Origin: Yuukianura sp. NJ FZ-2021
Lineage: Eukaryota
Direction of reading: 5' to 3'
Assembly (NCBI GenBank): GCA_046563655.1
Contig: JAJCTO010000009.1
Coordinates: forward strand, 434,001 to 498,000
Length of the DNA: 64,000 nucleotides
Shown here: piece by piece, positions 2,499 to 64,000 of the stretch
How positions within the stretch are numbered: position 1 is the first letter of the stretch
Layout: each line of letters begins with the position of its first letter
The notes under the pieces: model-generated
Seen by the model: the letters and a program-made list of their open reading frames with translations, nothing else
Databases searched by the model: none
What the model was told of the DNA's origin: nothing
Program-made: the position numbers and the translations under genes

Positions 2499-4406
2499 TC
2501 AGACAAAAGAATTACTTAAGGTAGAGTCAAGACAGGACATGTTTGCTAGGTTTGAACTTTTTGTCGTCGTCAAGATTTGTAAATTCAGAAAATGCTTGTG
2601 AGTGGCATTCCGGAAGGGTTCAAATGGTTTGCCAATTCCAAGATCCTGAAGTTCAGTCGGTAAGGCGCAGATTATTTTGGCAATTGTAGGAATAAATGCC
2701 TTTGAATGGAAAAGTTTGTCACTCATAGAAACATAGGATCCGCTTCGTGTGGATTTTCTTTGTTTTAGACAGTTTTCAATTTGTAAGATGGTCTCCTGGA
2801 AGTATGGAATTTGATGAGACTTCATTTTAGCAAATACTTGAACCAATTCGAAGAGGTTGTGATGGGTAGGTAGTAACCATTGGAGTTCAAAGTTTAGCTT
2901 CTCCATGACACAGTCGCGTTTTCTGAATTGATAGATGAATCTTATACTTTTCCGAAAAATGTTGTTGATGCACTTAAATTGGGAGGTTTTGCAGTTTGCC
3001 CAAATAACCAGCATGTATTGCAAAATTGGAGAGATGTATGAAGTAACCATTAACTTCCTGTGTTGTTCGGAGAGAAGATTTTGAATTGGGTAGAGTGACC
3101 ACAATATTGAATTGCATTTCTTGATTATGGAGATGTGATGTTCACACCATGTTAACGTATTGTCAATTGTAAGACCGAGTGATTTGAATGATGTTACACT
3201 TGTCACACTAGTGTTTCCCACTTGAAGTTGAATTAAGCCAATTTTGTCAATTATTTTCTTTTTCCCAATCAAAAGCACTTTGGTTTTTTCCATGTTCAAT
3301 GACATATGATTGCTTTCCATCCAGTTATTAATTTTTCCAATTAATATTTCTGCTCTTTGAATTAAGGAATTCACATGGTCTGGATCATCTGCAAGCACAA
3401 TGTTGTTGTCGTCTGCAAATAGAATTGCAGACGGTTCAGTGATGATTTCCAAAATGTCATTGATCATAATAGCAAACAGTAGAGGACCAAGTACTGAGCC
3501 TTGTGGAACTGACGAAATGGTTTGACGGGAAGTTGAACTTGAATTGTGAATTTCTACATGCTGTGACCTACTGATCAGATTGGATTCAAACAATTTAGTT
3601 GAAATGTTGTACCACTGCATTTTATCAATAAGGAAACCTTTGTTGACCGTGTCAAAAGCCTTTTTGAGATCCAAGGAAATCACCAGACAGATTTTGCCAT
3701 GATTAAGGTGGGAGTATATTATGTCCATTAGTGCCAGTTGAGCCAATGTAGTTGAGTGGCGCTGTCGAAATCCAAATTGGGCCTTATTCAGTAGAGAGTG
3801 GCTGTTCAAAAACTCAGTTAATTGATAGTGAGCAACTTTTTCTAAGAGTTTACCAAGCACTGGTTGGAGGGAGATTGGTCTAGTGTCGGATGGGTGTTTT
3901 GTAACTTTCACTTTTGGCAGTGGAATAACTTTTGAATGTTGAAACAATGATGGAAACACTTTTGTTTCAAAGCTTTTGTTTACAAGATTTAGCAGTTGCG
4001 TTTTTATGTTAGGCGCACTTTCACTGTGGGAAATAATCCAGTTTGAAATGCCGAATTGATCGCTACTTCTGGATTGTTTGTTTTTCACATTCTTCCAAAT
4101 CTTGTTAAATTGATGAACTGTCACTGACTTGAGAACAAAAGTTTCAGGGGGAGTGACAATAGAAGTTGGTTTGATTGGGCAAAGTGTCGATACTGTTTGT
4201 GGTGTGGTGATTGAGGTAAAATATTCATTGATTTCATCTGCACTCATAGGGAGATCATTGAATTTTGATTTTGTTTTTGACCAGACTTTTGAAATTGCCT
4301 TAAAAGGGCCAAGTTTTTCAATGTCAAGGTTTAGGGTGTCTTTTCTATCACGTAATACAGCTGACTTCGAGTTTGAGTGCTTGATCTCTATTTTTGACAC
4401 TTCCAT
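2499..4406 (-). pseudogene. LINE ORF2, reverse transcriptase portion (frameshifted from the APE portion)
   Basis: RT motifs PLPK...RPISL, QFGFR, LDLKKAFDTV, VPQGSVLGPLLF, LFADD, SLGLTID. Overlaps the APE ORF in another frame near 4350-4400. Confidence 0.92.
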
Positions 4407-5358
4407 TTGAGTGCTGGCCCCTTAATAAAATCAGATTTTTGGTTTCTTGTGAAAGTGTAAGTGGCACAACTTTCGGTACAAATGAAACAATTTTGGTTTT
4501 TGCTGTGTCATCAAAGTTGGTTTTGAATTTCTGCATAAATTCGTGGAACTGGGAATTTAAATCCATATCACTGGTTTGGAATGTTGTGAACACATTCTTG
4601 AGGCCAAATTCCTCAAAGTCAAAATTTTTGTAGTCTCGATATGTAAACTGCACTCGTGGAATCTTTGGCTTCGTCAAGTTGAGTGTTAGAAGGGTCATCG
4701 CATGGTAAGAAATATGAGGATCGATGACACAATGATCAACTACTGTTGAATCAGAGCTGGTGAATATTAGGTCCAGTATGGACTCTCCCCTTGTTGGTTG
4801 TTCAACTAGTTGATGGAATATGGATGTTGTTTTTTTAACTAGATGACGACATTTAGGCGGAATGTACTTCTGGTTCAAGTCGAAGTCTCCAAAAACGAAG
4901 CTATTTTTTCTGCTGAGACTCAATTCATTAAAGAGTTTGTGTAATGAGTCTAAATCAGTGCTGATTATTTCAGAGGAGTAATTAGGAATACGGTAAACAC
5001 TGGAGACGAGAAAGCATTTGTTGTTGTTGAGTTGAATTGATAGGGTAATCACTTCAAAGTTACAGTTAAGAGGCACGTTGACAACTTTCACTTTTGACTT
5101 CAGGGTAGATCTAACAAGGATGCCTACACCTCCTTTTGCTTGCCATTCTCTGTCTAGGTGAAAGAATTCGAATCCTTCAATTGATCTTGGTGGGTTAGTG
5201 ATCTTCAGATGCGTTTCAGAGATACACAAGACGTCGAGATTGTAAGATTCAATCAGTATTTTTGTTAATTCACATTTAGAGTTGAATCCACAAACATTAA
5301 GTCCAGCAATTTTCAATTTTTTACAGGAAGTTGATGGAGCCGCGTCAAGATGATCTAG
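4348..5358 (-). pseudogene. LINE ORF2, apurinic-like endonuclease (APE) portion
   Basis: Motifs GLNV, LCISETHL, GGVGI, VYRIP, GDFD (usually GDFN), PTR...LDLIF, SYH (usually SDH). Frame is open right from the ORF1 stop with no ATG. Confidence 0.9.
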
Positions 5359-6108
5359 TCATTTCTGGTTTGGGTGAGAATTACTAACTCGAGGTTGAGG
5401 CAAAATTGTAGGATTTGACGTGCGTTTGAGTGCTCTGTTGATTCTTGTAGCTTTGGGTACGTCATCTCTAAGTACAAGTCTATCACCAGGTGGTGAGGTC
5501 GGCAAGTCAAATCGTTTTCCACAAACAGCGTTTCTTTCGTTTCTGGATCTGAAAACAATTTTTACGGGAGGAATTCGAGTGCCATTGAAGTTACCAAGAC
5601 GGGAGGCGGCAGAGACGAAGTTAGTGTTATTGAGTCCAGTCAATTCAGAGCAGAGATTTTCAATGTAATCGTTAAGTAGAGATTCGGTTTCATTCGTAAG
5701 TTTGTTCAGTCCATGCAGGATGAGGTTCGATTTACCAAGTTCAATCTGGATTTTTTCAATTTCCTTGTCATGTGTGGATAGTTTGGCAGTGTCCGCATCT
5801 TGTCTTGATTCAACAATAGAAACTCGGCTTTGAAGTGATGCGATTTGAGATGAGAGGTCGGTAATTTGCTGGGACAGTTTGTGATTGTCTTTTTGTAGAT
5901 CAATTCGAAGCTGATTAATGGCTGCCAGTACAGTTTCGTTGGCTATTTTCGGTTTCTTTGGGCCAAGGGAAGCAGAATTGTCGTCGACTGAAATATTGGC
6001 TTTTCGTGTTGAACTTCTTGTGTTTGGTTGATTTGTGTTCGGCAACTGAACAACGTTCGCAGTGTCTGGTGGAGTATTAATCGTGGAGTCACTGGTTAGG
6101 GAACTCAT
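5359..6108 (-). CDS. LINE ORF1 (low-complexity N-terminus, coiled coil, RRM-like region)
   Basis: Heptad coiled coil (INQLRIDLQKDNHKLSQQITDLSSQIASLQSRVSIVE) followed by SNLILHGL...RLG...PVKIVF, a typical ORF1 layout. First ATG at 6108. Confidence 0.8.
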   Translation of the reverse strand: MSSLTSDSTINTPPDTANVVQLPNTNQPNTRSSTRKANISVDDNSASLGPKKPKIANETVLAAINQLRIDLQKDNHKLSQQITDLSSQIASLQSRVSIVESRQDADTAKLSTHDKEIEKIQIELGKSNLILHGLNKLTNETESLLNDYIENLCSELTGLNNTNFVSAASRLGNFNGTRIPPVKIVFRSRNERNAVCGKRFDLPTSPPGDRLVLRDDVPKATRINRALKRTSNPTILPQPRVSNSHPNQK

Positions 6109-6279
6109 TGGGAGGATGTACAATGTCCGTCAGGCACCAAAAAATTACTTCCATTTCCGTTTGCTTGTTTGATGAGTTTCTTCCTGGATGTCCGCAAGAG
6201 CCTTTAGTCCACTGTTCGTTGATGTTGATCCGTGGAGGTCACGTATGTCAATGGAAGCACCAGTTATGTCCAAGTATTT

Positions 6280-7184: not shown

Positions 7185-8129
7185 CATTTGACAAATTCAT
7201 TGTCAAACGCGTCACATGGCATCATAACACAGTTTGTATGTTACACCAGCGACTGGACTTCAATTTGTGGAAAACCCACTTTTAGTGTTTTGCAGACGCA
7301 TGTATGCGACAGGCTGTGGAAGACTATTGATACAAATTTGTCGGTGTCGTGTTTTTTGGGCCTTTTGCACTGGAGTACTTAAGGCGGAACAGTCGAATAT
7401 GTTTCACATTGAGCTAGTTTCTAGCGCGGTCTCTGTCTTGCTAATCTAAGGTAAGTTTCAGCGTAAATAGGTTAGGGCACTGATTTTGAAACCTTAGTGC
7501 GGCTTAGTATATCAAGTTACAACGTATCTGAGTAGTCTGCTCTAACATTTCTCTTTGTATCAAATTTAAGTGGAGAGTTTCCCGGGAATTTCACAAATTC
7601 ATTGTCAAACGCGTCACATGGCCCATAACACAGTTTGTATGTTACACCAGCGACTGGACTTCAATGTGTAGAATACCCACTTTTAGTCTTTTGCAGACGC
7701 ATGTCTGCGAAAGGCTGTGGAAGGCTATTGATACAAATTTGTCGGTGTCGTATTTTTAGGGCCCTTTGCGGTGGAGTACTTAAGGCGGAACAGTCGAATA
7801 TATTTCACATAGAGCTGGCTTCTAGCGCGGTCTCTGTCTTGCTAATCTAACGTAAGTTTCAGCGTAAGTAGGTTACGGCACTGATTTTGAAACCTCAGTT
7901 CGGCTTAGTATATCAAGTTACAACGTATCTGAGTAGCCTGCTCTAACATTTCTCTTTGTATCAAATTTAAGTGGAAAGTTCCCCGGCCATTTGACAAATT
8001 TATTGTCAAACGCGTCACATGGCATCATAACACAATTTGTATGTTACACCAGCGACTGGACTTCAATTTGTGGAAAACCCACTTTTAGTGTTTTGCAGAC
8101 GCATGTCTGCGACAGGCTGTGGATACAAA
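7185..8129. repeat. 402-bp tandem satellite, block 2 (~2.3 copies)
   Basis: Same unit as 744-2303 (matching ORF starts at 7234, 7635, 8037), slightly more diverged. Confidence 0.96.
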
Positions 8130-11100: not shown

Positions 11101-14100
11101 TTCTTGTACAAGAGAACGGTGTGATCAACAAAATGTGTAATTTCTACTCATTTTCGAAAATTTGTTGAATTATAAACGGGGTTATGAACTGCTCGGCACT
11201 ATTTTCTGTTATCGTCAAAGGAAGATTATCGGTACAACGTATTTTACCACAGAGAAATCCCCGCTGCTACAAGTGGCAGCTCTGACTGACATACAAACTT
11301 ATAGTAGCCACCATTGCCTCCATGAGAAGGAGCAAACAGATATTTTGGAAGCAATCTTGTACTAGAGAACGGTTTGATCAACAAAATGTGTAATGTCTAC
11401 TCATTTTCGAAAATTTGTTGAATTAGAAACGGGGTTATGAACTGCTCGGCACTATTTTCTGTTATCGTCAAAGGAAGATTATCGGTACAACGTATTTTAC
11501 CACAGAGAAATCCCCGCTGCTACAAGTGGCAGCTCTGACTGACATGCAAACTTATAGTAGCCACCATAGCCTCCATGAGAAGGAGCAAACAGATATTTTG
11601 AAAGCAATCTTGTACTAGAGAACGGTGTGATCAACAAAATGTGTAATTTCTACTCATTTCCGAAAATTTGTTGAATTATAAACGGGGTTATGAACTGCTC
11701 GGCACTATTTTCTGTTATCGTCAAAGGAAGATTATCGGTACAACGTATTTTACCACAGAGAAATCCCCGCTGCTACAAGTGGCAGCTCTGACTGACATGC
11801 AAACTTATAGTAGCCACCATAGCCTCCATGAGAAGGAGCAAACAGATATTTTGAAAGCATTCTTGTACAAGAGAACGGTGTGATCAACAAAATGTGTAAT
11901 TTCTACTCATTTTCGAAAATTTGTTGAATTATAAACGGGGTTATGAACTGCTCGGCACTATTTTCTGTTATCGTCAAAGGAAGATTATCGGTACAACGTA
12001 TTTTACCACAGAGAAATCCCCGCTGCTACAAGTGGCAGCTCTGACTGACATACAAACTTATAGTAGCCACCATAGCCTCCATGAGAAGGAGCAAACAGAT
12101 ATTTTGAAAGCAATCTTGTACTAGAGAACGGTGTGATCAACAAAATGTGTAATTTCTACTCATTTTCGAAAATTTGTTGAATTAGAAACGGGGTTATGAA
12201 CTGCTCGGCACTCTTTCCTGTTATCGTCAAAGGAAGATTATCGGTACAACGTATTTTACCACAGAGAAATCCCCGCTGCTACAAGTGGCAGCTCTGACTG
12301 ACATGCAAACTTATAGTAGCCACCATACCCTCCATGAGAAGGAGCAAACAGATATTTTGAAAGCAATCTTGTACTAGAGAACGGTGTGATCAACAAAATG
12401 TGTAATTTCTACTCATTTTCGAAAATTTGTTGAATTAGAAACGGGGTTATGAACTGCTCGGCACTCTTTTCTGTTATCGTCGAGGGAAGATTATCGGTAC
12501 AACGTATTTTACCACAGAGAAATCCCCGCTGCTACAAGTGGCAGCTCTGACTGACATGCAAACTTATAGTAGCCACCATAGCCTCCATGAGAAGGAGCAA
12601 ACAGATATTTTGAAAGCATTCTTGTACAAGAGAACGGTGTGATCAACAAAATGTGTAATTTCCACTCATTTTCGAAAATTTGTTGAATTATAAACGGGGT
12701 TATGAACTGCTCGGCACTATTTTCTGTTATCGTCAAAGGAAGATTATCGGTACAACGTATTTTACCACAGAGAAATCCCCGCTGCTACAAGTGGCAGCTC
12801 TGACTGACATACAAACTTATAGTAGCCACCATAGCCTCCATGAGAAGGAGCAAACAGATATTTTGGAATCTTGTACTAGAGAACGGTGTGATCAACAAAA
12901 TGTGTAATTTCCACTCATTTTCGAAAATTTGTTGAATTATAAACGGGGTTATGAACTGCTCGGCACTATTTTCTGTTATCGTCAAAGGAAGATTATCGGT
13001 ACAACGTATTTTACCACAGAGAAATCCCCGCTGCTACAAGTGGCAGCTCTGACTGACATGCAAACTTATAGTAGCCACCATAGCCTCCATGAGAAGGAGC
13101 AAACAGATATTTTGAAAGCAATCTTGTACTAGAGAACGGTGTGATCAACAAAATGTGTAATCTTATAGTAGCCACCATAGCCTCCATGAGAAGGAGCAAA
13201 CAGATATTTTGAAAGCATTCCAAAATGTGTAATTTCCACTCATTTTCGAAAATTTGTTGAATTATAAACGGGGTTATGAACTGCTCGGCACTATTTTCTG
13301 TTATCGTCAAAGGAAGATTATCGGTACAACGTATTTTACCACAGAGAAATCCCCGCTGCTACAAGTGGCAGCTCTGACTGACATGCAAACTTATAGTAGC
13401 CACCATAGCCTCCATGAGAAGGAGCAAACAGATATTTTGAAAGCAATCTTGTACTAGAGAACGGTGTGATCAACAAAATGTGTAATGTCTACTCATTTTC
13501 GAAAATTTGTTGAATTAGAAACGGGGTTATGAACTGCTCGGCACTATTTTCTGTTATCGTCAAAGGAAGATTATCGGTACAACGTATTTTACCACAGAGA
13601 AATCCCCGCTGCTACAAGTGGCAGCTCTGACTGACATACAAACTTATAGTAGCCACCATAGCCTCCGTGAGAAGGAGCAAACAGATATTTTGAAAGCAAT
13701 CTTGTACTAGAGAACGGTGTGATCAACAAAATGTGTAATTTCTACTCATTTCCGAAAATTTGTTGAATTATAAACGGGGTTATGAACTGCTCGGCACTAT
13801 TTTCTGTTATCGTCAAAGGAAGATTATCGGTACAACGTATTTTACCACAGAGAAATCCCCGCTGCTACAAGTGGCAGCTCTGACTGACATGCAAACTTAT
13901 AGTAGCCACCATAGCCTCCATGAGAAGGAGCAAACAGATATTTTGAAAGCAATCTTGTACTAGAGAACGGTGTGATCAACAAAATGTGTAATGTCTACTC
14001 ATTTTCGAAAATTTGTTGAATTAGAAACGGGGTTATGAACTGCTCGGCACTCTTTTCTGTTATCGTCGAAGGAAGATTATCGGTACAACGTATTTTACCA

Positions 14101-53100: not shown

Positions 53101-55935
53101 GACATGCAAACTTATAGTAGGCACCATAGCCTCCGTGAGAAGGAGCAAACAGATATTTTGAAAGCAATCTGGTACTAGAGAACGGTGTGATCAACAAAAT
53201 GTGTAATTTCTACTCATTTCCGAAAATTTGTTGAATTATAAACAGCGCTATGAACTGCTCGGCACTCTTTCCTGTTATCGTCGATGGAAGATTATCGGTA
53301 CAACGTATTTTACCACAGAGAAATCCCCGCTGCTACAAGTGGCACCTCTGAATGACATGCAAACTTATAGTAGGCACCATAGCCTCCGTGAGAAGGAGCA
53401 AACAGATATTTTGAAAGCAATCTTGTACTAGAGAACGGTTTGATCAACAAAATGTGTAATGTCTACTCATTTTCGAAAATTTGTTGAATTAGAAACGGGG
53501 TTATGAACTGCTCGGCACTATTTTCTGTTATCGTCAAAGGAAGATTATCGGTACAACGTATTTTACCACAGAGAAATCCCCGCTGCTACAAGTGGCAGCT
53601 CTGACTGACATACAAACTTATAGAAGCCACCATAGCCTCCATGAGACGGAGCAAACAGATATTTTGGAAGCAATCTTGTACTAGAGAACGGTGTGATCAA
53701 CAAAATGTGTAATTTCTACTCATTTCCGAAAATTTGTTGAATTATAAACAGCGCTATGAACTGCTCGGCACTCTTTCCTGTTATCGTCGATGGAAGATTA
53801 TCGGTACAACGTATTTTACCACAGAGAAATCCCCGCTGCTACAAGTGGCAGCTCTGAATGACATGCAAACTTATAGTAGGCACCATAGCCTCCGTGAGAA
53901 GGAGCAAACAGATATTTTGAAAGCAATCTTGTACTAGAGAACGGTGTGATCAACAAAATGTGTAATGTCTACTCATTTTCGAAAATTTGTTGAATTAGAA
54001 ACGGGGTTATGAACTGCTCGGCACTATTTTCTGTTATCGTCAAAGGAAGATTATCGGTACAACGTATTTTACCACAGAGAAACCCCGCTGCTACAAGTGG
54101 CAGCTCTGACTGACATACAAACTTATAGAAGTCACCATAGCCTCCATGAGAAGGAGCAAACAGATATTTTGGAAGCAATCTTGTACTAGAGAACGGTTTG
54201 ATCAACAAAATGTGTAATGTCTACTCATTTTCGAAAATTTGTTGAATTAGAAACGGGGTTATGAACTGCTCGGCACTATTTTCTGTTATCGTCAAAGGAA
54301 GATTATCGGTACAACGTATTTTACCACAGAGAAACCCCGCTGCTACAAGTGGCAGCTCTGACTGACATACAAACTTATAGAAGTCACCATAGCCTCCATG
54401 AGAAGGAGCAAACAGATATTTTGGAAGCAATCTTGTACTAGAGAACGGTGTGATCAACAAAATGTGTAATTTCCACTCATTTTCGAAAATTTGTTGAATT
54501 ATAAACGGGGTTATGAACTGCTCGGCACTATTTTCTATTATCGTCAAAGGAAGATTATCGGTACAACGTATTTTACCACAGAGAAATCCCCGCTGCTACA
54601 AGTGGCAGCTCTGACTGACATGCAAACTTATAGTAGCCACCATAGCATCCATGAGAAGGAGCAAACAGATATTTTGGAAGCAATCTTGTACTAGAGAACG
54701 GTGTGATCAACAAAATGTGTAATTTCCACTCATTTTCGAAAATTTGTTGAATTATAAACGGGGTTATGAACTGCTCGGCACTATTTTCTATTATCGTCAA
54801 AGGAAGATTATCGGTACAACGTATTTTACCACAGAGAAATCCCCGCTGCTACAAGTGGCAGCTCTGACTGACATACAAACTTGTAGAAGCCACCATAGCC
54901 TCCATGAGAAGGAGCAAACAGATATTTTGGAAGCAATCTTGTACTAGAGAACGGTGTGATCAACAAAATGTGTAATTTCCACTCATTTTCGAAAATTTGT
55001 TGAATTATAAACGGGGTTATGAACTGCTCGGCACTATTTTCTATTATCGTCAAAGGAAGATTATCGGTACAACGTATTTTACCACAGAGAAATCCCCGCT
55101 GCTACAAGTGGCAGCTCTGACTGACATGCAAACTTATAGTAGCCACCATAGCCTCCGTGAGAAGGAGCAAACAGATATTTTGAAAGCAATCTTGTACTAG
55201 AGAACGGTGTGATCAACAAAATGTGTAATGTCTACTCATTTTCGAAAATTTGTTCAATTAGAAGCGTGGTTATGAACAGCTCGGCACTATTTTCTGTTAT
55301 CGTCGAAGGAAGATTATCGGTACAACGTATTTTACCGCAGAGAAATCCACGCTGCTACAAGTGGCAGCTCTGACTGACATACAAACTTATAGTAGCCACC
55401 ATTGCCTCCATGAGAAGGAGCAAACAGATATTTTGAAAGCATTCTTGTACAAGAGAACGGTCTGATCAACAAAATGTGTAATTTCCACTCATTTTCGAAA
55501 ATTTGTTGAATTATAAACGGGGTTATGAACTGCTCGGCACTATTTTCTATTATCGTCAAAGGAAGATTATCGGTACAACGTATTTTACCACAGAGAAATC
55601 CCCGCTGCTACAAGTGGCAGCTCTGACTGACATGCAAACTTATAGTAGCCACCATAGCCTCCATGAGAAGGAGCAAACAGATATTTTGAAAGCATTCTTG
55701 TACAAGAGAACGGTGTGATCAACAAAATGTGTAATTTCCACTCATTTTCGAAAATTTGTTGAATTATAAACGGGGTTATGAACTGCTCGGCACTATTTTC
55801 TGTTATCGTCAAAGGAAGATTAACGGTACAACGTATTTTACCACAGAGAAACCCCGCTGCTACAAGTGGCAGCTCTGACTGACATACAAACTTATAGAAG
55901 TCACCATAGCCTCCATGAGAAGGAGCAAACAGATA
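8130..55935. repeat. 253-bp tandem satellite array, ~189 head-to-tail copies (candidate centromeric/pericentromeric satellite)
   Basis: Period 253 throughout with a limited set of recurring substitutions. Starts at TGAATTATAAACGGGG and ends mid-monomer at ...GAGCAAACAGATA. Confidence 0.99.
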
Positions 55936-56215
55936 AGCTATAGTCATCTTGAAGGGAATTTCCACTTTTTCAAAATTGCACCCCCCCCCCTTTTTTTTTC
56001 ATCCCCCCCCCCCTCCCACACCCCTCACTGGGAAAAAAAAAACTAAAAAGTTAATAGTTTAATGAAATAATTAAAAGGTCACAAAAAGGAAAAAAGTGTT
56101 ACTATAGAAACACAAAAGTACTCCAAAGGAAATGTTTGTTTTTGAAAAAGAAAAAGAAAAAGACAAGGTCAAATTTTAGAAAAGGAGGCCATTCCGAGTT
56201 TGAACTTTGTTCAAG

Positions 56216-57004
56216 ATGGTCGCCTCAAGAATGGCTCCTCTCTTGTTCTGTTTCTTTTGTCTGCTCCACTTCGTTTCAAGCCGACCGTGGTGCCAATTGC
56301 TGAACAGCGCATGTTCAGATTGCGTTTCTGCTGGATGTTTCTTTGGAGTTCTGCTTGAGGATGGAAGAGCTGTTTGCTTCGCTGGAGGATTCCTGGGAGG
56401 TCTCCCACTTGCTTTTTCTGTGGGGCCAAGAACCAACTGTCCATCGCCAACTCCAGCGCCATCTACTACAACAACTTCAGATGGAAGAATTTCCTTGGAA
56501 CTAAAGCTTCTCTTGTCCATTGCGCATGAGCAAACTTCTACTTCGACACAATCAAGCACTTCAACTACTCCGAAGCTTCCAACCACTTCTGCGCATGACA
56601 ACTTTGGAACTTTTTTGCTTCTTTTTGGATTCTTAGGTAACTATTACAAGTTACAATTGCACAAATCAACGAAAAATTTGTACTCTAATTAGAATTTTGA
56701 TTTTATTTCAGTTTTCATGCTGATTCTGATTGCTGTTTGGATTCTACTACGCAAAAGGCGATGTCAAGTTCGGAGAGGTCAAAGGTCACTGGAGATTTTT
56801 TCATTGGAAAATCCAAACTATACTGGAATCGAATCACCCGAGCCATCTCTAGGCGAGCAGTCTCCGGAATCTAGCGTCAACACTTCTCCAGAAAACTCGC
56901 CAGTTGCTGTTCTTCCCAAAAGAGGGCGCTTTAGTGCAGATGGTGTCTACCGGACATTTTTTGGACGCAGGTCAATTCTGCCAACAAGATACAAGCCTTT
57001 CTAA
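56216..57004 (+). CDS. Type-I membrane glycoprotein: signal peptide, 6-Cys PSI-like domain, Ser/Thr mucin stalk, TM, cytoplasmic NPxY; exons 56216-56636, 56712-57004 (237 aa)
   Basis: GT-AG intron 56637-56711 joins the two ORFs in frame, giving one continuous TM helix (FLLLFGFLVFMLILIAVWILL) followed by RKRR. AATAAA follows at ~57073. Confidence 0.75.
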
Positions 57005-57136
57005 CACAATTCATTTCTAATTCTATTGTTACTCAGTTATTGTACTAATTTTTCTAAAAGTTATCATTTTGAAATAAAGTTTATTGTTGTTTATTTTTGA
57101 CAATCAGTTTGTTTTTAGCCTTTGTCGAGCGTAGAC

Positions 57137-58191
57137 ATGGAAACTAAGCAAAAATATACAAATTTGGAAAATGTAAAGAGTTTTTCAGGCCTTTCTACAT
57201 TTCTACGCGGAGAAGCAAATAAATCCAAAAAAACAAAAGAACTTCAAACGTTGCCAAGTTATAGTTTGTTCAAGCCAGTAAAATTAAAGTACATTGAGCG
57301 TCAAACTTTTGTTCCATTTCCATTCCACACGTTTGGCATGGACTTAATGTCTGTCCAGAACGTGTCACGGAAAAACAAGGGAATCAACTGGATTCTTATT
57401 ACAGTTGATCTCTTTTCACGTAAGCTCTACACTGCATTTTTAAAGAAAAAGAATGCAGTGTCTGTGGAGGAAGGAATCCGGAAGGTCTTTCAAGAATCTG
57501 GCCAACGTCCACACTTTGTCCTTGTAGACAGGGTATGTACCCCAGTCCCCCCCCCCCCAATTTAAATATTATTTATATACGTCAATTTCTTTGAAACAAT
57601 AGGGACGAGAGTTTTACAATAGGAAGGTTCAGACTCTCTTTCAGACATTGAATTTCAAAATGTATTCGGTGCACTCCATGAACAAATGCAGCATATGCGA
57701 ACGTGTACAGTTGACCTTGAGAACCAAACTCGCTCGTGTCCAAAACCAGACTGAGACCCCGGGCAAGTTTCTGGACGTGTGGGATCAGCTAGTTAAAAAT
57801 TACAACAATACTTATCATTCGAGCATCAAGATGGCGCCCAATGACGTCACCGTCGAAAACAGTGACGTAGTTTTTCGTAACCTTTATGGCAAAACTATTG
57901 AAACTCAAAAGCGTATAAAACCACGATACAAGGTCGGTGACCAGGTCAGAATATCCACTGCAAGGGTCACGTTCACAAAGGCTTCTACTGTTGAAAAGTG
58001 GTCACGTGAGATTTTTCGTATCATTGCCGTTCACAAGTCCAACGTGGCTTACTATTTCTTGGAGGATCTTCAAGGAGAACCCATAATTGGTAAGTTGCCC
58101 CCACCCCCACCGCATGTCAAATGTTTAAAACAATAACTTTGTTGATTTTCCAGGAACATTTGTGCAAGAGGAGCTCAACAAAGTATCTTAG
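57137..58191 (+). CDS. Maverick retroviral-like DDE integrase; exons 57137-57532, 57603-58089, 58154-58191 (306 aa)
   Basis: Motifs FGMDL...TVDLFSRK, D-R-G-R-E-F-Y-N (restored by intron 57533-57602), ICERVQLT, YNNTYHSSIKMAP, YKVGDQVRIS, WSREIF and GEPIIGTFVQEELNKV (restored by intron 58090-58153). Confidence 0.92.
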
Positions 58192-58193
58192 CC

Positions 58194-59264
58194 ATGTCAG
58201 TCTACTTTGCCCCCGTGTCTAGGTATATTATATTAGACAGTTCTCTAAACAGTGCCCAATTTCCCGAAAACAAGCCAAATGACTTCAGAGGAAAGTTGAT
58301 GCCTATTGTTGACGGTGCAAAGGAGCCCTTGGAAGTTGCCATTGACAGTATGACTTATACTCCTGGGCCCAAGCCAGAACGCAACATTTTTGGACATAAT
58401 GTGGGCGATAATGTTATCAACGTTACTGAACACTTGGAATCTACTGCAACTTTTAGAAAAATAGATGGGATAATAAAGTTTTTTGGCCATGTCAACAAGG
58501 AATTGAAAAAACTTCAGAAACAAATTACAATTACATACTCAAACCGAGTCTTTTCTCTGTCAAATGAAGAAAAGGGGCACACAGTAGCCATGACAGAAGT
58601 CTATGCTCTCGCCTTTGGATTTGACACAAATACGTTTCCTAACGGAGTTACTCATGGTCATGAGTATACCGAACGCATTTTTAATGAGATTGATCCGACG
58701 ATAAACATGGTACTAAGTATTTTTCAAGACAAGGAAAACTTGGCAACAGTGGCAGAACCAAAGCAGAAAACTGTCGACGGGCTTGTTGAAGTCTTAAACG
58801 CCGCCTTGACCCCATTTCAAATTACATTCAAGTACTCTGAAAAAGAATCCTTGTTGACTTATACGCGTGAATCTACGCACAATTACATTACACGCCTCTC
58901 CCCCTTATTGGGCCAAATATTTGGACTTCCCCCTGGAACTGCATTTCATGATCACACCCAAACACAACCAGCAAAAGCAGAGATTGACCTTGGGGTCACG
59001 TCACAGCATATGCTTGTTACTTGCGATCTCGCCTCCTATTCCCAAGTTGGCCAGCTTTCACTTCCCTTGATTGGATTGTTTAAGCAAGAGGGAAAGGAGG
59101 GAACTCCTGTCCATCTGGTTATCAACAACCCCCGCTACTTTCCAGTAAAAAGGGAGCAACTGATTGATTCTACCCGCATTCAGCTTTTGGACGAGTACCA
59201 GGCACCTCTCTCTGAAGGTCACGGGCCAACCCTACTCGCTCTCCATGTCCGAAGCAACCCCTAG
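58194..59264 (+). CDS. Putative minor capsid (penton-like) protein, 356 aa
   Basis: N-terminal ILDSSLNSAQFPENKPNDF and C-terminal YFPV...IDSTRIQLLDEY...TLLALHVR resemble Polinton minor capsid termini. Position after the integrase fits. Confidence 0.75.
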   Translation: MSVYFAPVSRYIILDSSLNSAQFPENKPNDFRGKLMPIVDGAKEPLEVAIDSMTYTPGPKPERNIFGHNVGDNVINVTEHLESTATFRKIDGIIKFFGHVNKELKKLQKQITITYSNRVFSLSNEEKGHTVAMTEVYALAFGFDTNTFPNGVTHGHEYTERIFNEIDPTINMVLSIFQDKENLATVAEPKQKTVDGLVEVLNAALTPFQITFKYSEKESLLTYTRESTHNYITRLSPLLGQIFGLPPGTAFHDHTQTQPAKAEIDLGVTSQHMLVTCDLASYSQVGQLSLPLIGLFKQEGKEGTPVHLVINNPRYFPVKREQLIDSTRIQLLDEYQAPLSEGHGPTLLALHVRSNP

Positions 59265-59924
59265 GTATTACGACATTGACCCCTCCCGACCACGTCTTCC
59301 CGAGTTGTTTATCGAGGACTACGTTGGAGATGTTCCTCCAAGGGCGGAACATAAAGTTTTGTGTAAGTTTCCAATCTACGTTTCCGAACAAGCACGCTTG
59401 GACACCTTTTACGCACACGGTTACGAGTGGCCCCTTAAATTCATTTCCCCGCTGGATGCTGCCAAGGGTGGTTTTTACTGCTTAAAACGGGGTGATCGTG
59501 TCTGCTGCGTCTACTGCAATTTACACCTTTTTGATTTTATGGAAGGAGATTCAATTGAAGAAGAGCACTCGAGATCCAAAAACACTTGCCCATTCCTAAG
59601 AGGAGTTCCAAATATAAACATTCCAATTCAGTGCAACAGCCAGAACGAGGTTCGAGAAAAGGTAGAGGATTTTATCAGTTTTGCAAAAAAAAGAGCCGCT
59701 TTCGCCGCCAGCCGTTTGACGCCAAGTGCACAGAAAAGCTGGATTCAATACTGAAGCATCTCAGCGCCGACCGCACCTGTAAAGTTTGTGCCAATAGTGA
59801 AGTTGACACGATTTTTCTCACTTGCTGCCACTATGTGACTTGCTACTATTGTTCTGAAAAATGTGAAAAGTGTCCCTTGTGCCGTGCTACCATAATGGGA
59901 CGCATCCGAACCTTTACTGCATAA
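59245..59924 (+). CDS. iap: Inhibitor-of-apoptosis protein (one BIR + C-terminal RING), split over two frames
   Basis: BIR: ARLDTF...WP...AKGGFY...DRVCCVYC...EEH...CPFL (59245-59754). RING: CKVC...FLTCCHYVTC..C...CPLCR in the -1 frame, ending 59924. Confidence 0.85.
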
Positions 59925-60028
59925 GAGAAGCGGATGACCCCGGTGACTTTAGTCTGTGTTTAGTTCTCTTCGTGGACACACGTATGCGACAAGTTCTCTG
60001 TGACAAAATATCGTGCAAGTTGAAACCC

Positions 60029-60337
60029 ATGGATACTTCTGAAGAGCAGGTCCAGGCAGGTGGCGGACTAGGTCAGACGCCAGTACCGTTTTACCTTCCG
60101 CTGCAGCGTGTTGTGTCTTCTAGTGCTCGTGGTAGAAAGGGAAAGGTCAAGAGTAAACGTAAAGGAAGTGCAAGTGGTGTGAAGCGAAAGAAACGTACAT
60201 TTCAAAAAGGGAGCGGGAAAGTTAAAAGAGTGTCTCAAGAAGGAAAAGGAAAAAGGCGCAAACCCAAGAAATCCAAGCCAGTCAAAAGAAAGCGTTCGAC
60301 CAAGTCAGTCGCATCTAGTAGTTGCTCCAGGCAGTGA
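60029..60337 (+). CDS. Small Lys/Arg-rich protein with QxGxG motifs (putative DNA-condensing core protein, 102 aa)
   Basis: QAGGG, QKGSG and QEGKG motifs plus a highly basic tract. Lies directly upstream of the major capsid with a TGATG stop/start overlap. Confidence 0.65.
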   Translation: MDTSEEQVQAGGGLGQTPVPFYLPLQRVVSSSARGRKGKVKSKRKGSASGVKRKKRTFQKGSGKVKRVSQEGKGKRRKPKKSKPVKRKRSTKSVASSSCSRQ

Positions 60338-61701
60338 TGGAAATTTTAGGAAAAAGCCGCAAAACCTACCAAAGTTCGCTGGATCCCTTTCTAATTTGGG
60401 ATCAGGATGTCAGTCTTCAAGAAACACGTTACTTGCAAGTCACTCCGCTTTCGTCACTCGCTGACGAAGGACCTATTGTTTTTAGAATTCCCAAGTCAAA
60501 ACTCTATTATCACTTGGGTGATTCATATTTGTATATAAAGTCAAAAGTTGTAAATGCTGATGGAACCACTTTGGCATCTACCGACAACGTAGCTCCTTCA
60601 AATTTGTTCTTCTACAGTCTCTTTTCAAACTGTTCAGTGGACATTAATGGAACACGTGTAAATGACAGTGCCGGAAAGTATCATTACAGGGGAGTGTTGC
60701 CTTTAATACTCGGTGTAGGAGAAGCCAACAAGTCCACGCGTATGTCTGAACAGTTTTGGTATCCAGATACCAAGGTCGATAGTTTCACCGACGCGACCAA
60801 TGAGGCATTCAAACTCCGCAAGTCATTTTCGGCTGGTTCCAAGGCATTTGAGGTCATGGGCCGCCCAGCCTCTTCAATTTTTGAGACTGGCAGGGTTCTA
60901 CTGCCTGACAATGAACTTGAGGTCACATTTACGAGAAACTCGAGCAGCATTTACTTGGATTCAGATACAACAACCAAGACTGGGCAGACTGGAATTCCAT
61001 GGAAGGCATCAATTCTCGAGTGTATTTTGTTTGTAAAAACATACCAAATTAACCCAGAAATCCGTAACCGTCACGAGCAGGCTCTTCAGCGTGGGTTAAA
61101 AGCCGTCTATCCGCTAAATGAACTAGAGATTCGCCCAATTTCGATTCCAGTTGGTCAGATCAAGTTTAACACTACAGTCAACTACTCAAACAGAATTCCC
61201 AATTTCATAGCTGTGGCTCTTTTGGATGCCGAGGCCTACAATGGAAAACTGACAAAGAGTTTTCAAAATTTTGGAAGCAATGGACTTGTGTCTATAACTG
61301 TTACGTTCTCCGAGAGTTCGTTTGTCTACCAAAGACTAGATTTTGACTTTGAAGGTGGCAACTATCTCCGAGCGTATAATGCCCTGTTTAATGCTTTGCC
61401 TCCAGGAAGTACTTCTAGCAACGGTATAAGTCGAAGTGACTATACTAATGGCAATACAATTTTTATTTTTGAAATAAATGACGCCCCGAGTAGCCAGGCC
61501 TTTCTACCACAGCTTGTTGGCGACTTGAAGGTTAGAATTTAAAAAAAAATACCAATAAAACCAAAGTCACGTTTTGTTTTTTTCATTTAGTTGGATCTTG
61601 AGTTTAAGACTGCAACCACGAAAATTATACAGCTACTCGTTTTTGGGAAACAAACCAACATTTTAACAATTGACAAGAACCGAACCGTCAAGCTCAGCTA
61701 G
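60337..61701 (+). CDS. Maverick major capsid protein (double jelly-roll type); exons 60337-61530, 61591-61701 (434 aa)
   Basis: Motifs PIVFRIP...YLYIKSKVV...NLFFYSLFSNCSVDING...YHYR...LLPDNELEVTFTRN...YNG...F. Intron 61531-61590 restores the C-terminus GDLKLDLEF...LLVFG...ILTIDKNRTV. Confidence 0.88.
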
Positions 61702-61702
61702 G

Positions 61703-62236
61703 ATGGACACGGAACAAGTAGAATACGCTCTTCGCGGAATAGCGTCATGCGCTAGCCCATGGATCCAGTCTTTTGTTGTTGCCAACGATGAAATTTGTCA
61801 ATTAAATTTACGCGCCCCATTTGCAGTTATCCAAAATGTAGACTTTTCGTCACAAAATGGAACGCACTGGGTCTTGTGGATCACTCTCGGTAAACGTCTC
61901 ATCTTTTTTGATTCGTTCGCCTGCACTCCCCAACACTACAACCTAAATTACCCAACCAAGTTTCGACGAATTTCCCAAGTGAATTCAGTGCCACTTCAGT
62001 CTGAATCCAGCTCCAAGTGCGCCGAGTTTTGTTTATATGTAGCTTATTGTATTTTTAGAGGACAGACGTTTGATTGCGTTCTGAATACGTTTAACACTAC
62101 AGATTTAAAGTTTAACGATTTAATGGTTAGTTTGTTTTTGAAAAATTTTTTACTAAATTTATCTCAAAAAAAGTGTTTTATTGATAGGAAAAGTAAATGT
62201 ATTCAGAATTCAAAACCAAAACTTGAGTGGAAATAA
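61703..62236 (+). CDS. Adenain-family cysteine (maturation) protease, 177 aa
   Basis: NVD...GTHWV, FFDSF and LQSESSSKCAEFC give the catalytic H-D-(Q)-C in order. AATAAA overlaps the stop. Confidence 0.92.
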   Translation: MDTEQVEYALRGIASCASPWIQSFVVANDEICQLNLRAPFAVIQNVDFSSQNGTHWVLWITLGKRLIFFDSFACTPQHYNLNYPTKFRRISQVNSVPLQSESSSKCAEFCLYVAYCIFRGQTFDCVLNTFNTTDLKFNDLMVSLFLKNFLLNLSQKKCFIDRKSKCIQNSKPKLEWK

Positions 62237-62402
62237 AAATCTACCCTCGCTAACATAACCTCAACTCTGTGTTCTAGTACCTTTATTGCCCTTTCGTGAG
62301 GGTAAAGTTGAACTTCGACGGGAGTTGCATTTTTTGTAGTCATTTGCATTTTGGTCTGCAGAGGGAGAGGTCGATCACATTTTGTAGTGCAATAGAGTAA
62401 TA

Positions 62403-62705
62403 ATGGAGAACATTTTGTCTGAAAAGAACAAGGAAATTGAGACGTGGAAATTTATTGTCCGGTGCAATGAGGGAAGCATCTCCTACCTCAAAGACACAGT
62501 ATACGAACTACGCTTGGATTTGGAAGAAGCTAAACTTCGAAACGAGGCACTCAAACAGGAACTGGAGGCGGTACGATCTCTGCTAAAGGATCACAAACCC
62601 AGCTCTTTGGAGAAGCTCTTTGAGAACTTGAGCATTAGGCCTCTTTCTCCGCCTCCACTCCCTCCCATGCTCCCGACTCAACTCTTTTCCAGAAACAACA
62701 ACTAA
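62403..62705 (+). CDS. Hypothetical coiled-coil protein (100 aa)
   Basis: ATG-initiated ORF with a leucine heptad and a Pro-rich tail; no recognised family. Confidence 0.45.
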   Translation: MENILSEKNKEIETWKFIVRCNEGSISYLKDTVYELRLDLEEAKLRNEALKQELEAVRSLLKDHKPSSLEKLFENLSIRPLSPPPLPPMLPTQLFSRNNN

Positions 62706-62894
62706 ATTTACAACGAGTTAAAATTTTCAACAAGTGAAAGTGACCTTAGATTACAATAATTAATAGATGAGGCTCACGACTTTGTTTTACTCTTTTCTAG
62801 AAACAACAACTAAATTTTCAACAAGTTAAAGTTTTCAACAAGTGAAAGTGACCTTAGATTACAATAACCAACAGACGAGGCTCACGACTTTGTT
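62681..62894. repeat. Two-copy 108-bp tandem duplication between convergent genes
   Basis: ACTCTTTTC(C/T)AGAAACAACAACTAAATTT...GAGGCTCACGACTTTGTT begins at 62681 and again at 62789. Confidence 0.9.
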
Positions 62895-62953
62895 GTAAGA
62901 CAGGTTTTATTTACAGAATTTTGAAAAATAATAAAAAACGCACTTTCACTCAA

Positions 62954-63968
62954 TTATTGAAGCTCTTCAATTGGTGGACACTCTTGTAGAATCTCCTCAA
63001 AAACTGCAATCATGGCTCGAAGCTCCGCCTTGCTGAGTTGAATCTTGGGTCCTGCATAAAACATTTGACGTTTGAAATATTTCATAGTTTATTTGAGATT
63101 ATGTTACCATGGTAGTCGGCGTATTCTTGACTTGCTCCTGGAGAATTAATGTAAAAGCTGTAGAATCCTCCATTGGCATGAAACATTGGGCGAAGACGAA
63201 ATGTTGCGCTTTCAGTCATGAAAATGGATGCATCGTTCCAAAACTCTGCTTTCGTAGGTTTCAAATCCTGTGGCGGAAACACTGGAACTCCAGTTCGAAT
63301 TCCTTCTTCAATTTTAGGGAGAAGCTCCTCTTTCACAAAGTTAATTACTGCCTCAACTTCGCTAATCAGAATTTGCACAATTGACGGCTTTGTCCCAACA
63401 TTATCCTTCCGGAGAAATACTTTGAGAACCTTGAAAATAATAAACGGTTAGAATTTGGAACAAACATTTCTTGATAAATTAAAAAATAGTACATCGTTGT
63501 AGCTATCCAGTCCGAGGCGAATCAAAATCTTGCTAGACAGAGCAATCTTTTTTGTTATTGGATCTGCAAAAAATGCTTCCTTATTGTACGCACTGTACGG
63601 CACGCAGCGAATCCTTTCCATGAATGCAAAATGGTTTGAAGAGTTGGGGCCACGAAAGGTCATGGGAAGCTTTTCATAACCTTGCTCTTCTCCCTGTCCC
63701 CCGGTAATGAGTTCCCTTGCACGCTTCATCCCTGGTACGTTTTGCTGCGGTAACTGCGAAATCAATTCACCGACACTTCGGGTCATGTCACCTTCACCAA
63801 CCAAAACACAACTGGCCTTTACTTGCACCAGTTTGACCCTTTTATAGTAGATGGATGGGTCATAAAAGGTATACACACTGCCAAATTCTCGCCAGTGTGT
63901 GTCTAACCTTTGGTCAGTGAGGATGTCAAAAAGAGATGCGAGTGGAAAGTGTCTAGTGACGTTGGAGT
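62954..63968 (-). CDS. Spliced hypothetical protein, C-terminal half possibly tandem PC4-like ssDNA-binding repeats; exons 63968-63493, 63429-63108, 63051-62954; 5' partial
   Basis: GT-AG introns 63492-63430 and 63107-63052 join three segments in frame, ending GPKIQLSKAELRAMIAVFEEILQECPPIEELQ*. The PC4 resemblance is only a by-eye pattern. Confidence 0.6.
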
Positions 63969-64000
63969 CTTATCATACATTTATAGATGAACAAAAACAA

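Follow-up and report, generated by a model that had tools for sequence, protein, structure and literature searches.

The stretch of DNA analyzed here (contig JAJCTO010000009.1 of Yuukianura sp. NJ FZ-2021, positions 434,001 to 498,000; 64,000 nucleotides (nt), referred to below as the window) is eukaryotic DNA in which an integrated element of Maverick/Polinton-like (adintovirus-like) type most probably starts at about 56.1 kb, its left part reaching to the end of the window. The integrase gene and the double jelly-roll capsid gene of this element are interrupted by short introns, predicted from the DNA and confirmed by homology, and the predicted capsid intron recurs at the same codon boundary and in the same phase in distant relatives. 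We consider it likely, on comparison of these sequences, that intron-bearing core genes are a trait of the lineage and that the capsid intron was not gained in situ by the present copy. The two core genes are arranged as follows, the introns being numbered by their order in the window.

57137..57532, plus strand: integrase exon 1, 132 codons, with both catalytic D residues of the rve core (alignment to 12 homologs)
57533..57602, plus strand: intron 2, 70 nt, phase 0, GTATGT...CAATAG (tblastn and exon-wise alignment)
57603..58089, plus strand: integrase exon 2, starting with GREFYN (catalytic E) and ending with ...YYFLEDLQGEPII and the first base of a split codon
58090..58153, plus strand: intron 3, 64 nt, phase 1, GTAAGT...TTCCAG, with a C-rich 5' part
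58154..58191, plus strand: integrase exon 3, (G)TFVQEELNKVS and then the stop, a [FY]..EL.K tail
60337..61530, plus strand: capsid exon 1, 398 codons, double jelly-roll (HMMER, AlphaFold2 (AF2), Foldseek)
61531..61590, plus strand: intron 4, 60 nt, phase 0, GTTAGA...ATTTAG, GC 0.22, two in-frame stops
61591..61701, plus strand: capsid exon 2, 36 codons and the stop

The integrase junctions were located by comparing the exons with related proteins. On exon 1 the Pfam rve match is sub-threshold (E 0.0033, 18.1 bits vs a cut-off of 32.6); it covers residues 80-132, which correspond to profile positions 20-74 of 102, and ends at the last residue of the exon. Exon 2 retrieved 12 longer homologs (E 9e-21 to 3e-11), every one of which contains PF00665, and the D, D and E columns of an rve (DDE) integrase are aligned between them and the window's protein. 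By tblastn, all 12 homologs gave an upstream high-scoring segment pair (HSP) in frame 3 and a second one in frame 1, whose first position is exactly 57603. In four homologs (P0001, P0004, P0005 and P0006; e.g., 257/258) no residue is lost between the two HSPs at 57532/57603; in the remaining eight the upstream HSP ends 1-15 codons before 57532 or extends 3 codons beyond it. When the three exons were aligned as separate rows with the 12 homologs, the end of exon 1 (...VLVDR) and the start of exon 2 (GREFYN) fell in adjacent columns, under G[KRLT]E[FY] in all 12; this alignment, together with the rve match that ends at exon 1, places the catalytic E two residues past intron 2. The column after exon 2 is G in 10 of the 12 homologs, matching the split codon G/GA, and exon 3 (TFVQEELNKVS) lies under tails of the SFYEPELQKTS type, with P0003, P0008 and P0009 ending at the same residue. 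Both introns predicted in the integrase gene are confirmed by this homology.

A word-based homolog search with capsid exon 1 returned zero matches. A full HMMER search with the same exon returned 4040 proteins at E<=1e-3, mostly of about 436 residues, the best of them at 35% identity. With the two exons aligned as separate rows, the end of exon 1 (...LVGDLK) is followed in the next column by the start of exon 2 (LDLEFKTATT...) in 29 of 30 full-length homologs, and the 20 codons of intron 4 (VRI, stop, KKIPIKPKSRFVFFI, stop) have no counterpart in capsid homologs. The predicted capsid intron, like those of the integrase gene, is confirmed by homology. The AF2 model of exon 1 reached a predicted local distance difference test (pLDDT) score of 90.1 on a 51-row alignment, and Foldseek matched it with probability 1.00 to the capsid proteins of Singapore grouper iridovirus (SGIV) and Paramecium bursaria chlorella virus 1 (PBCV-1), to vaccinia D13 and to the mavirus major capsid protein (MCP), at TM-scores up to 0.58; exon 1, as modeled, folds as a double jelly roll. 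The best match in BFVD was a protein of Cotesia sesamiae Mombasa bracovirus (E 4.6e-21), and virophage, adomavirus (LO7) and MELD-virus capsid proteins were also among the matches. The genome of this bracovirus reportedly contains a Maverick insertion. A sequence-only reading of the window had claimed that removal of three of its introns restores conserved motifs, and the motifs VDR/GREF, GEPII-(G)-TFVQEELNKVS and GDLK/LDLEF are gapless against the homologs; its assignment of the short introns to core genes (integrase and double jelly-roll capsid) of a Maverick/Polinton-like element is likewise upheld by homology and fold.

A search for loci with the capsid homolog P0013 yielded four contigs of one metagenome (L001 to L004), L001 being P0013's own contig; a search of viral and metagenome contigs with P0027 yielded zero related loci. 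The L001 and L002 capsids are about 35% identical to that of the window, and both genes carry an intron at the same codon boundary and in the same phase as intron 4. In L001 the intron is 93 nt long, with GKVK followed by GTATGA...TTGTAG and then by IELTFQDAL; in L002, whose capsid protein is 79% identical to P0013, it is 416 nt long, with GKVK followed by GTATGC...GCACAG and then by IELEFTDIL. The L002 intron (1425-1840) is long because of two 156-bp repeats of 92% identity, and this unit looks like a small repeat inserted or duplicated within the intron. No sequence similarity was detected between the L001 and L002 introns. The L002 intron is not a multiple of 3, and its exon 2 is out of frame unless spliced. 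The DNA of L001 and that of L002 match at 73% over 434 exon codons, with a nonsynonymous rate (dN) of 0.154, a synonymous rate (dS) of 3.4, which is saturated, and a dN/dS of 0.045; selection has therefore acted on the protein, including the exon 2 that is unreadable without splicing, in the presence of the intron. Among the six introns of the window, a position-conserved intron with purifying selection on its exons was found for intron 4 only. L003 (31% identity to P0013) has no intron at the site of intron 4; it has an 82-nt phase-1 segment, GTAACA...TTATAG, about 20 codons upstream. The protease gene of L001 and L002 has a GT-AG segment just before the G.HW block, which the window and L003 protease genes lack.

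The 150 listed capsid homologs (of 4040) were sorted by profiles of both sides of the junction: 102 were contiguous, 2 had an insert, 4 ended there, 12 were classed as "diverging" and 30 were unclassifiable. The inserts comprise 8 residues in P0017 and 27 residues, from V to Q, in P0019, as a translated GT...AG segment would give. P0013, P0018, P0043 and P0107 end within 6 residues of the junction, and among the 12 "diverging" proteins 11 have a normal exon-2-like tail, the twelfth (P0016) having an unrelated 23-residue tail. In all, 7 of the 150 listed homologs are interrupted at the junction. The insert of P0017, VCNSEFEG, begins like the read-through of the L002 intron (1425-1445), VCNSIE followed by a stop, and hints at a partly retained or shortened intron. 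The sequence-only reading had held that such introns hide genes from callers based on open reading frames (ORFs), and the database proteins bear this out: P0013, P0016, P0018, P0043 and P0107 stop or diverge at the capsid junction, and P0019 reads through it.

The distribution of the interrupted state was examined on a quick, unrooted IQ-TREE phylogeny of 77 rows, cut at the junction (P0107, the window, and those 75 of the 120 classifiable homologs that ranked highest). The clade that contains the window has 11 rows and a Shimodaira-Hasegawa-like approximate likelihood ratio test (SH-aLRT) value of 97; seven of its rows, the window counted, are interrupted and four (P0014, P0015, P0020 and P0024) are not; outside this clade, 1 of 66 rows is interrupted. 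The shared codon and phase in L001 and L002, the dN/dS of 0.045 and the clustering in the clade are the reasons for regarding the capsid intron as inherited along the element lineage. The sequence-only reading had attributed the introns to gain during long nuclear residence of the present copy. This view does not fit the relatives, since L001 and L002 share the position and phase of the capsid intron and the interruption clusters in the window's clade, and the comparison of intron positions indicates that the locus is not exceptional within that clade. A broader proposal, to which we give slightly less than an even chance, is that a whole clade of animal-type Maverick/adintovirus-like elements keeps the capsid intron at one fixed codon through deep divergence (about 35% identity), together with lineage-specific integrase and protease introns, and is obligately dependent on the spliceosome.

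The three other introns lie in a membrane-protein gene to the left of the integrase gene and in a minus-strand gene, here called gene X, which runs past the end of the window.

56216..56636, plus strand: membrane-protein exon 1 (type I; signal-peptide-like N-terminus, serine/threonine-rich region, first half of a transmembrane helix)
56637..56711, plus strand: intron 1, 75 nt, phase 1, GTAACT...TTTCAG, GC 0.24, one in-frame stop
56712..57004, plus strand: membrane-protein exon 2 (rest of the transmembrane helix, RKRR, tail with NPNY)
63493..63969, minus strand: gene X exon a, 159 codons, 0.19 bits/codon
63430..63492, minus strand: intron 6, 63 nt, phase 0, GTACTA...TTCAAG, GC 0.22, one in-frame stop
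63108..63429, minus strand: gene X exon b, 107 codons and 1 base, 0.27 bits/codon
63052..63107, minus strand: intron 5, 56 nt, phase 1, GTAACA...ATGCAG, GC 0.25, linking two frames
62954..63051, minus strand: gene X last exon, 32 codons including the stop, 0.28 bits/codon

Removal of intron 1 joins ...FLLLFGFL to (V)FMLILIAVWILL-RKRR, giving one helix of transmembrane length and a stop-transfer signal. Zero Pfam families and zero homologs were detected for the membrane protein. The bits per codon given for gene X come from a codon-usage model trained on 1378 core-gene codons, on which the training genes themselves score 0.14-0.32 bits/codon. Each of the three gene X exons is the best of the six frames in its predicted frame, including the frame change across intron 5. 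Searches with gene X gave zero informative matches in homologous proteins, PDB sequences, Pfam (E<=5) and PHROGs, and in the ESM Atlas two of its exons had low recognition scores (1410 and 1580), with best matches (0.91 and 0.89) that were uninformative. The minus strand upstream of exon a (63970-64000) is T-rich and ends in ...GATAAG, which looks like the 3' end of a further intron at the window edge. On frame restoration, low GC and the rebuilt helix, intron 1 is probably a real intron; introns 5 and 6, judged on frame restoration, low GC and codon usage, are each at least as probable and perhaps a little more so.

The lengths and positions of the six GT-AG introns put forward in the sequence-only reading could be reproduced: read on the strand of its gene, each of the six has GT at its start and AG at its end, and the lengths, from intron 1 to intron 6, are 75, 70, 64, 60, 56 and 63 nt. 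Its statement that each restores the frame also stood, as an open frame results from removal in all six, and colinearity with intronless homologs was obtained for three of them (introns 2, 3 and 4). Introns 1, 4 and 6 are multiples of 3 and contain 1, 2 and 1 in-frame stops, respectively; introns 2, 3 and 5 are not, and each links ORFs in different frames. These segments are the sole ORF breaks in about 6.1 kb of coding sequence, except for a frame change in a gene resembling inhibitor of apoptosis (IAP) genes. For a junction fixed by homology, simple arithmetic puts the chance of finding GT and AG exactly at its two ends at about 1/256 for each of introns 2, 3 and 4. The GC contents, in the same order, are 0.24, 0.37, 0.42, 0.22, 0.25 and 0.22, compared with 0.433 for the exons (6760 nt). 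Introns 1, 4, 5 and 6 are as GC-poor as the lowest 1.2-1.6% of exon windows (5837 windows of 60 nt), and the GC of introns 2 and 3 is ordinary (18% and 41% of exon windows are as GC-poor). Among the frame-compatible GT-AG pairs, those put forward in the sequence-only reading are the ones that bound an AT-rich stretch, with a T-rich tract before the AG. C runs occur in both integrase introns (12 C at 57547-57558 in intron 2 and a C-rich segment at 58098-58112 in intron 3) and are absent from the other four.

Pairwise local alignment scores among the six introns were 8-15, compared with a mean of 9.5, a 95th percentile of 13 and a maximum of 18 for shuffled sequences. An introner family as the source of the introns was rejected because the window's introns, to which this comparison was confined, have no mutual similarity beyond that of the shuffles. 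An identical 11-nt string, GGTTAGAATTT, covers the donor of intron 4 (61530-61548) and recurs in intron 6 (63446-63464), on the strand opposite to gene X, probably by chance. A seventh intron at 62126-62187 (GTTAGT...GATAG, GC 0.18), in the tail of the protease-like gene, was rejected; its read-through VSLFLKNF aligns with VVNFVKNI of L003 and VENFVNSL of L001, and the segment is coding because the read-through is homologous to the protease tails of these relatives.

Several observations count against the interpretation of the six segments as introns carried by an intact element along its lineage. All six junctions are predicted from DNA alone, and the protease-tail case at 62126-62187 shows that an AT-rich GT...AG segment is not by itself diagnostic. 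The interrupted state changes 6 times on the best tree, and at least 3 times on starred branches, and 13 of 500 label shuffles gave a count as low; the tree therefore does not tell a single old gain followed by losses apart from recurrent gain at an AAG/GT site, and, the tree being unrooted, gain and loss cannot be separated. The codon usage of the membrane-protein exons is weak (0.06-0.08 bits/codon), and for exon 1 an opposite-strand frame scores 0.12; such a poor match fits a cargo gene of other origin, which the membrane-protein gene, to the left of the integrase, probably is on codon usage. The IAP-like gene is split over two frames without an intron-like segment, which means either an assembly error or a copy that is not fully intact. 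Family searches recognized no protein-primed family B DNA polymerase in 56.1-64.0 kb, where gene X runs off the window, no packaging ATPase of the FtsK/HerA type was found within the window, and there are no inverted repeats of at least 18 nt in 55800-64000, a region in which only one element end can fall. Introns 1, 5 and 6 are without homologs, and each could be a nonsense or frameshift lesion in a chance GT...AG segment.

This last point leads to an alternative that we regard as unlikely, namely that only introns 2, 3 and 4 are introns, and that introns 1, 5 and 6 are nonsense or frameshift lesions, the first in a cargo gene and the other two in a gene X undergoing decay, with coincidental GT and AG. 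No homolog spans the junctions of these three segments, for which 9 (intron 1), 7 (intron 6) and 10 (intron 5) alternative frame-restoring GT-AG pairs are listed. The IAP-like gene shows, in addition, that the copy can carry a frame break without an intron, and the protease tail that an AT-rich GT...AG segment can be coding. Each lesion, however, would need to fall in a 56-75-nt stretch belonging to the lowest 1.2-1.6% of exon-window GC, and each stretch would also need a GTA... start and a T-rich ...YAG or AAG end. Moreover, the pieces of gene X hold the codon usage of the element in the predicted frames, including the change across intron 5, and removal of intron 1 rebuilds a continuous hydrophobic helix followed by RKRR.

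It is considerably less probable that these are host-domesticated Maverick genes that acquired introns in the manner of host genes, as did Gin-1 and Gin-2 from Ginger1 transposases. Integrase-derived host genes that gained introns once domesticated are documented in PMC2836005, and terminal repeats and a polymerase were not seen in the window. Against this reading, the viral gene order and packing are retained (TGATG at 60335-60339, and gaps of 2 nt and 1 nt); the same gene order occurs on four metagenomic contigs, two of which carry the capsid intron, their introns being unrelated in sequence; and the neighbors of the locus are a satellite array of 48 kb and a long interspersed nuclear element (LINE), not host genes. 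A reading in which nothing is spliced, the six segments being junk inserted into an array of dead pseudogenes, has in its favor that the junctions are known from DNA alone, but is hardly credible given that three junctions are exactly colinear with homologs and have GT and AG at both ends, that about 6.1 kb of coding sequence contains no further stops or frameshifts, the IAP-like gene aside, and that intron-bearing relatives are under purifying selection, including in an exon 2 that comes into frame only on splicing.

On the reading that we favor, the densely packed genes of the element would be transcribed in the nucleus by RNA polymerase II (Pol II), and several of the transcripts would be spliced by the U2-type spliceosome of the host. 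Unspliced integrase RNA would encode a protein lacking the catalytic E and the C-terminal module, and unspliced capsid RNA a protein lacking the last 36 residues; both products would be expected to be inactive. The capsid intron would have been kept through DNA-based replication along the lineage, and the introns in the membrane-protein gene and gene X would also be real. We speculate that the lineage keeps introns for export, for enhanced expression or for escape from the silencing of intronless transcripts; the sequence-only reading, which called the introns host-sized, had likewise suggested that they may gate expression or help to evade silencing. Small-RNA silencing of genes with few introns is described for Caenorhabditis elegans ERI-6/7 targets in PMC11414722.

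The occurrence of the capsid intron in distant relatives means that these elements need the host splicing machinery and are easily missed by intron-blind gene finders, and the conservation of an intron in a capsid gene under purifying selection implies transcription by Pol II in the nucleus and reliance on the spliceosome. Capsid proteins of this lineage that end at the intron are already present in public protein sets, so that counts, trees and calls of "intact versus degraded" would change with splice-aware searches. Should the capsid intron prove to be fixed clade-wide, intron-blind surveys would systematically truncate or miss genes, and the introns might license nuclear export or shield transcripts. 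The conserved capsid intron also offers a way to ask if mobile elements gain protection from their introns against the silencing of intronless RNA.

The remaining genes of the element were read, as was the whole gene map, with the standard genetic code, and are listed here together with the repeats of the window.

58194..59264, plus strand: orf356, uninterrupted, 356 codons (tblastn to L004, E 1.7e-15)
59245..59924, plus strand: IAP-like gene, BIR (frame 59245-59754; E 2.8e-13) and C-terminal RING (frame 59559-59924; zf-C3HC4_3, E 1.7e-11)
59984..60337, plus strand: gene for a K/R-rich basic protein (same position in L004 and L001)
61703..62236, plus strand: cysteine-protease-like gene, uninterrupted, with blocks G.HW..W, FDS[FY] and Q..S..C..FC (tblastn to L003, E 2.5e-15, and to L001)
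62403..62705, plus strand: coiled-coil-like ORF, 100 codons, 0.17 bits/codon
62681-62896: 108-bp direct repeat, 2 copies, 92% identity, starting in the last codons of the coiled-coil-like ORF
744-2303 and 7186-8123: tandem-repeat arrays with a 401-402-bp unit, flanking the LINE on both sides
2499-6129, minus strand: LINE-like retrotransposon (RVT_1, E 4.7e-31; Exo_endo_phos, E 9.5e-07; coiled-coil ORF1)
8130-55935: satellite array, 253-bp unit, about 189 copies, 96-97% match, ending about 280 nt short of the element's first gene

Relatives share the gene order orf356, basic protein, capsid and protease. No Pfam or PHROG families were found for orf356, and its fold model, made from a 2-row alignment, is unusable (pLDDT 32.5); we infer only that it is a candidate minor capsid protein, kept upstream of the basic protein and the capsid in L004. 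The IAP-like gene is regarded as accessory because L004 lacks it at the corresponding place, between its orf356 and basic-protein genes. The overlap of its two frames (59559-59754) has normal GC and contains a run of 8 A at 59685-59692; an intron joining the BIR and RING frames was rejected, since none of the 25 frame-compatible GT-AG pairs bounds an AT-rich segment. The G.HW, FDS[FY] and Q..C blocks are common to the protease-like protein of the window and those of L001 to L003, and they may correspond to the catalytic triad of an adenain/Ulp1-like (clan CE) cysteine protease. The L003 homolog has a sub-threshold RickCE_cat match (E 0.0011), and the window's own protein has zero PDB or Pfam matches. 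An ORF that follows the protease gene in L003 gave weak P-loop matches only (ATPase_2, E 0.0022; Adeno_IVa2, E 0.14).

Packing within the element is tight: the basic-protein stop and the capsid start overlap in TGATG at 60335-60339, orf356 begins after a gap of 2 nt from the integrase gene, and 1 nt separates the protease gene from the capsid gene. AATAAA signals occur at 57073 (69 nt past the membrane-protein stop), at 62232 (on the protease stop) and at 62906-62911 on the minus strand (about 43 nt past the gene X stop), and the 108-bp repeat separates the convergent plus-strand and minus-strand gene blocks. The satellite array (about 48 kb) occupies three quarters of the window; a local 325-nt period was seen inside it, at 12896-13486. 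The composition shifts at about 56.1 kb, where the dense gene set begins that extends to the end of the window, and a run of 11 C at 56003-56013 lies at the left edge of the element. An Rfam search of the window gave zero families, and the window contains no host gene.

The element resembles Mavericks/Polintons (polintoviruses, adintovirus-like elements) in its rve integrase with a C-terminal [FY]..EL module, its double jelly-roll capsid, the adjoining cysteine-protease-like gene and the tight packing. It differs from them in the integrase and capsid introns and in that a polymerase, an ATPase and terminal repeats were not seen in the window. A literature search found no description of conserved spliceosomal introns in the capsid or integrase genes of animal Mavericks, the founding papers being outside its reach. 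Introns in some invertebrate Polintons may, reportedly, already be recorded by Kapitonov and Jurka in 2006 and in Repbase. Adenoviruses, polyomaviruses and adomaviruses, which are nuclear double-stranded DNA viruses, likewise express structural genes by way of the host spliceosome, and part of their capsid lineage is related, adomavirus LO7 being among the structural matches of the capsid. These viruses use leader-to-body and alternative splicing; unlike theirs, the window's introns are short and internal to coding sequence, as in host genes.

Where introns have been considered in related elements, it is mostly their absence that is described. PMC8097293 credits intact vertebrate Mavericks with "intronless ORFs" and places this "in agreement with" Kapitonov and Jurka 2006; protist endogenous viruses "do not contain introns" in PMC10120064; and introns occur in none of the genes of the Cafeteria virophage-like elements (EMALEs) according to PMC8547959. 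These three surveys and a nematode survey (bioRxiv 10.1101/2022.07.12.499685), in all of which genes are assumed or reported to be intronless, used prokaryotic-style ORF finders. In the nematode survey, Maverick core genes are "intronless", and 2-5 kb of cargo to the left of the integrase comes "with genes with introns". The present element is similar in having an intron-containing gene of different codon usage between its left edge and the integrase; it is unlike the nematode Mavericks described there in that introns extend beyond the cargo, there is no WASP protease or KRMA kinase, and the cargo consists of a small membrane protein and the IAP-like gene.

Ginger1 elements provide a further parallel: according to PMC2836005, their integrase-type transposase genes have 1-4 mostly GT-AG introns, so that here too an integrase-type gene of a DNA transposon is split by introns, but Ginger1 is a cut-and-paste element with no capsid genes. 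A likeness in a virus-like setting is to dinoflagellate Maverick-Polinton-like proviruses, which are populated by introners according to PMC11957031 and which carry spliceosomal-type introns within otherwise complete virus-like elements. Introners form families of near-identical mobile copies, whereas the six introns of the window have no mutual similarity beyond that of shuffled sequences and the L001 and L002 introns are unrelated to each other.

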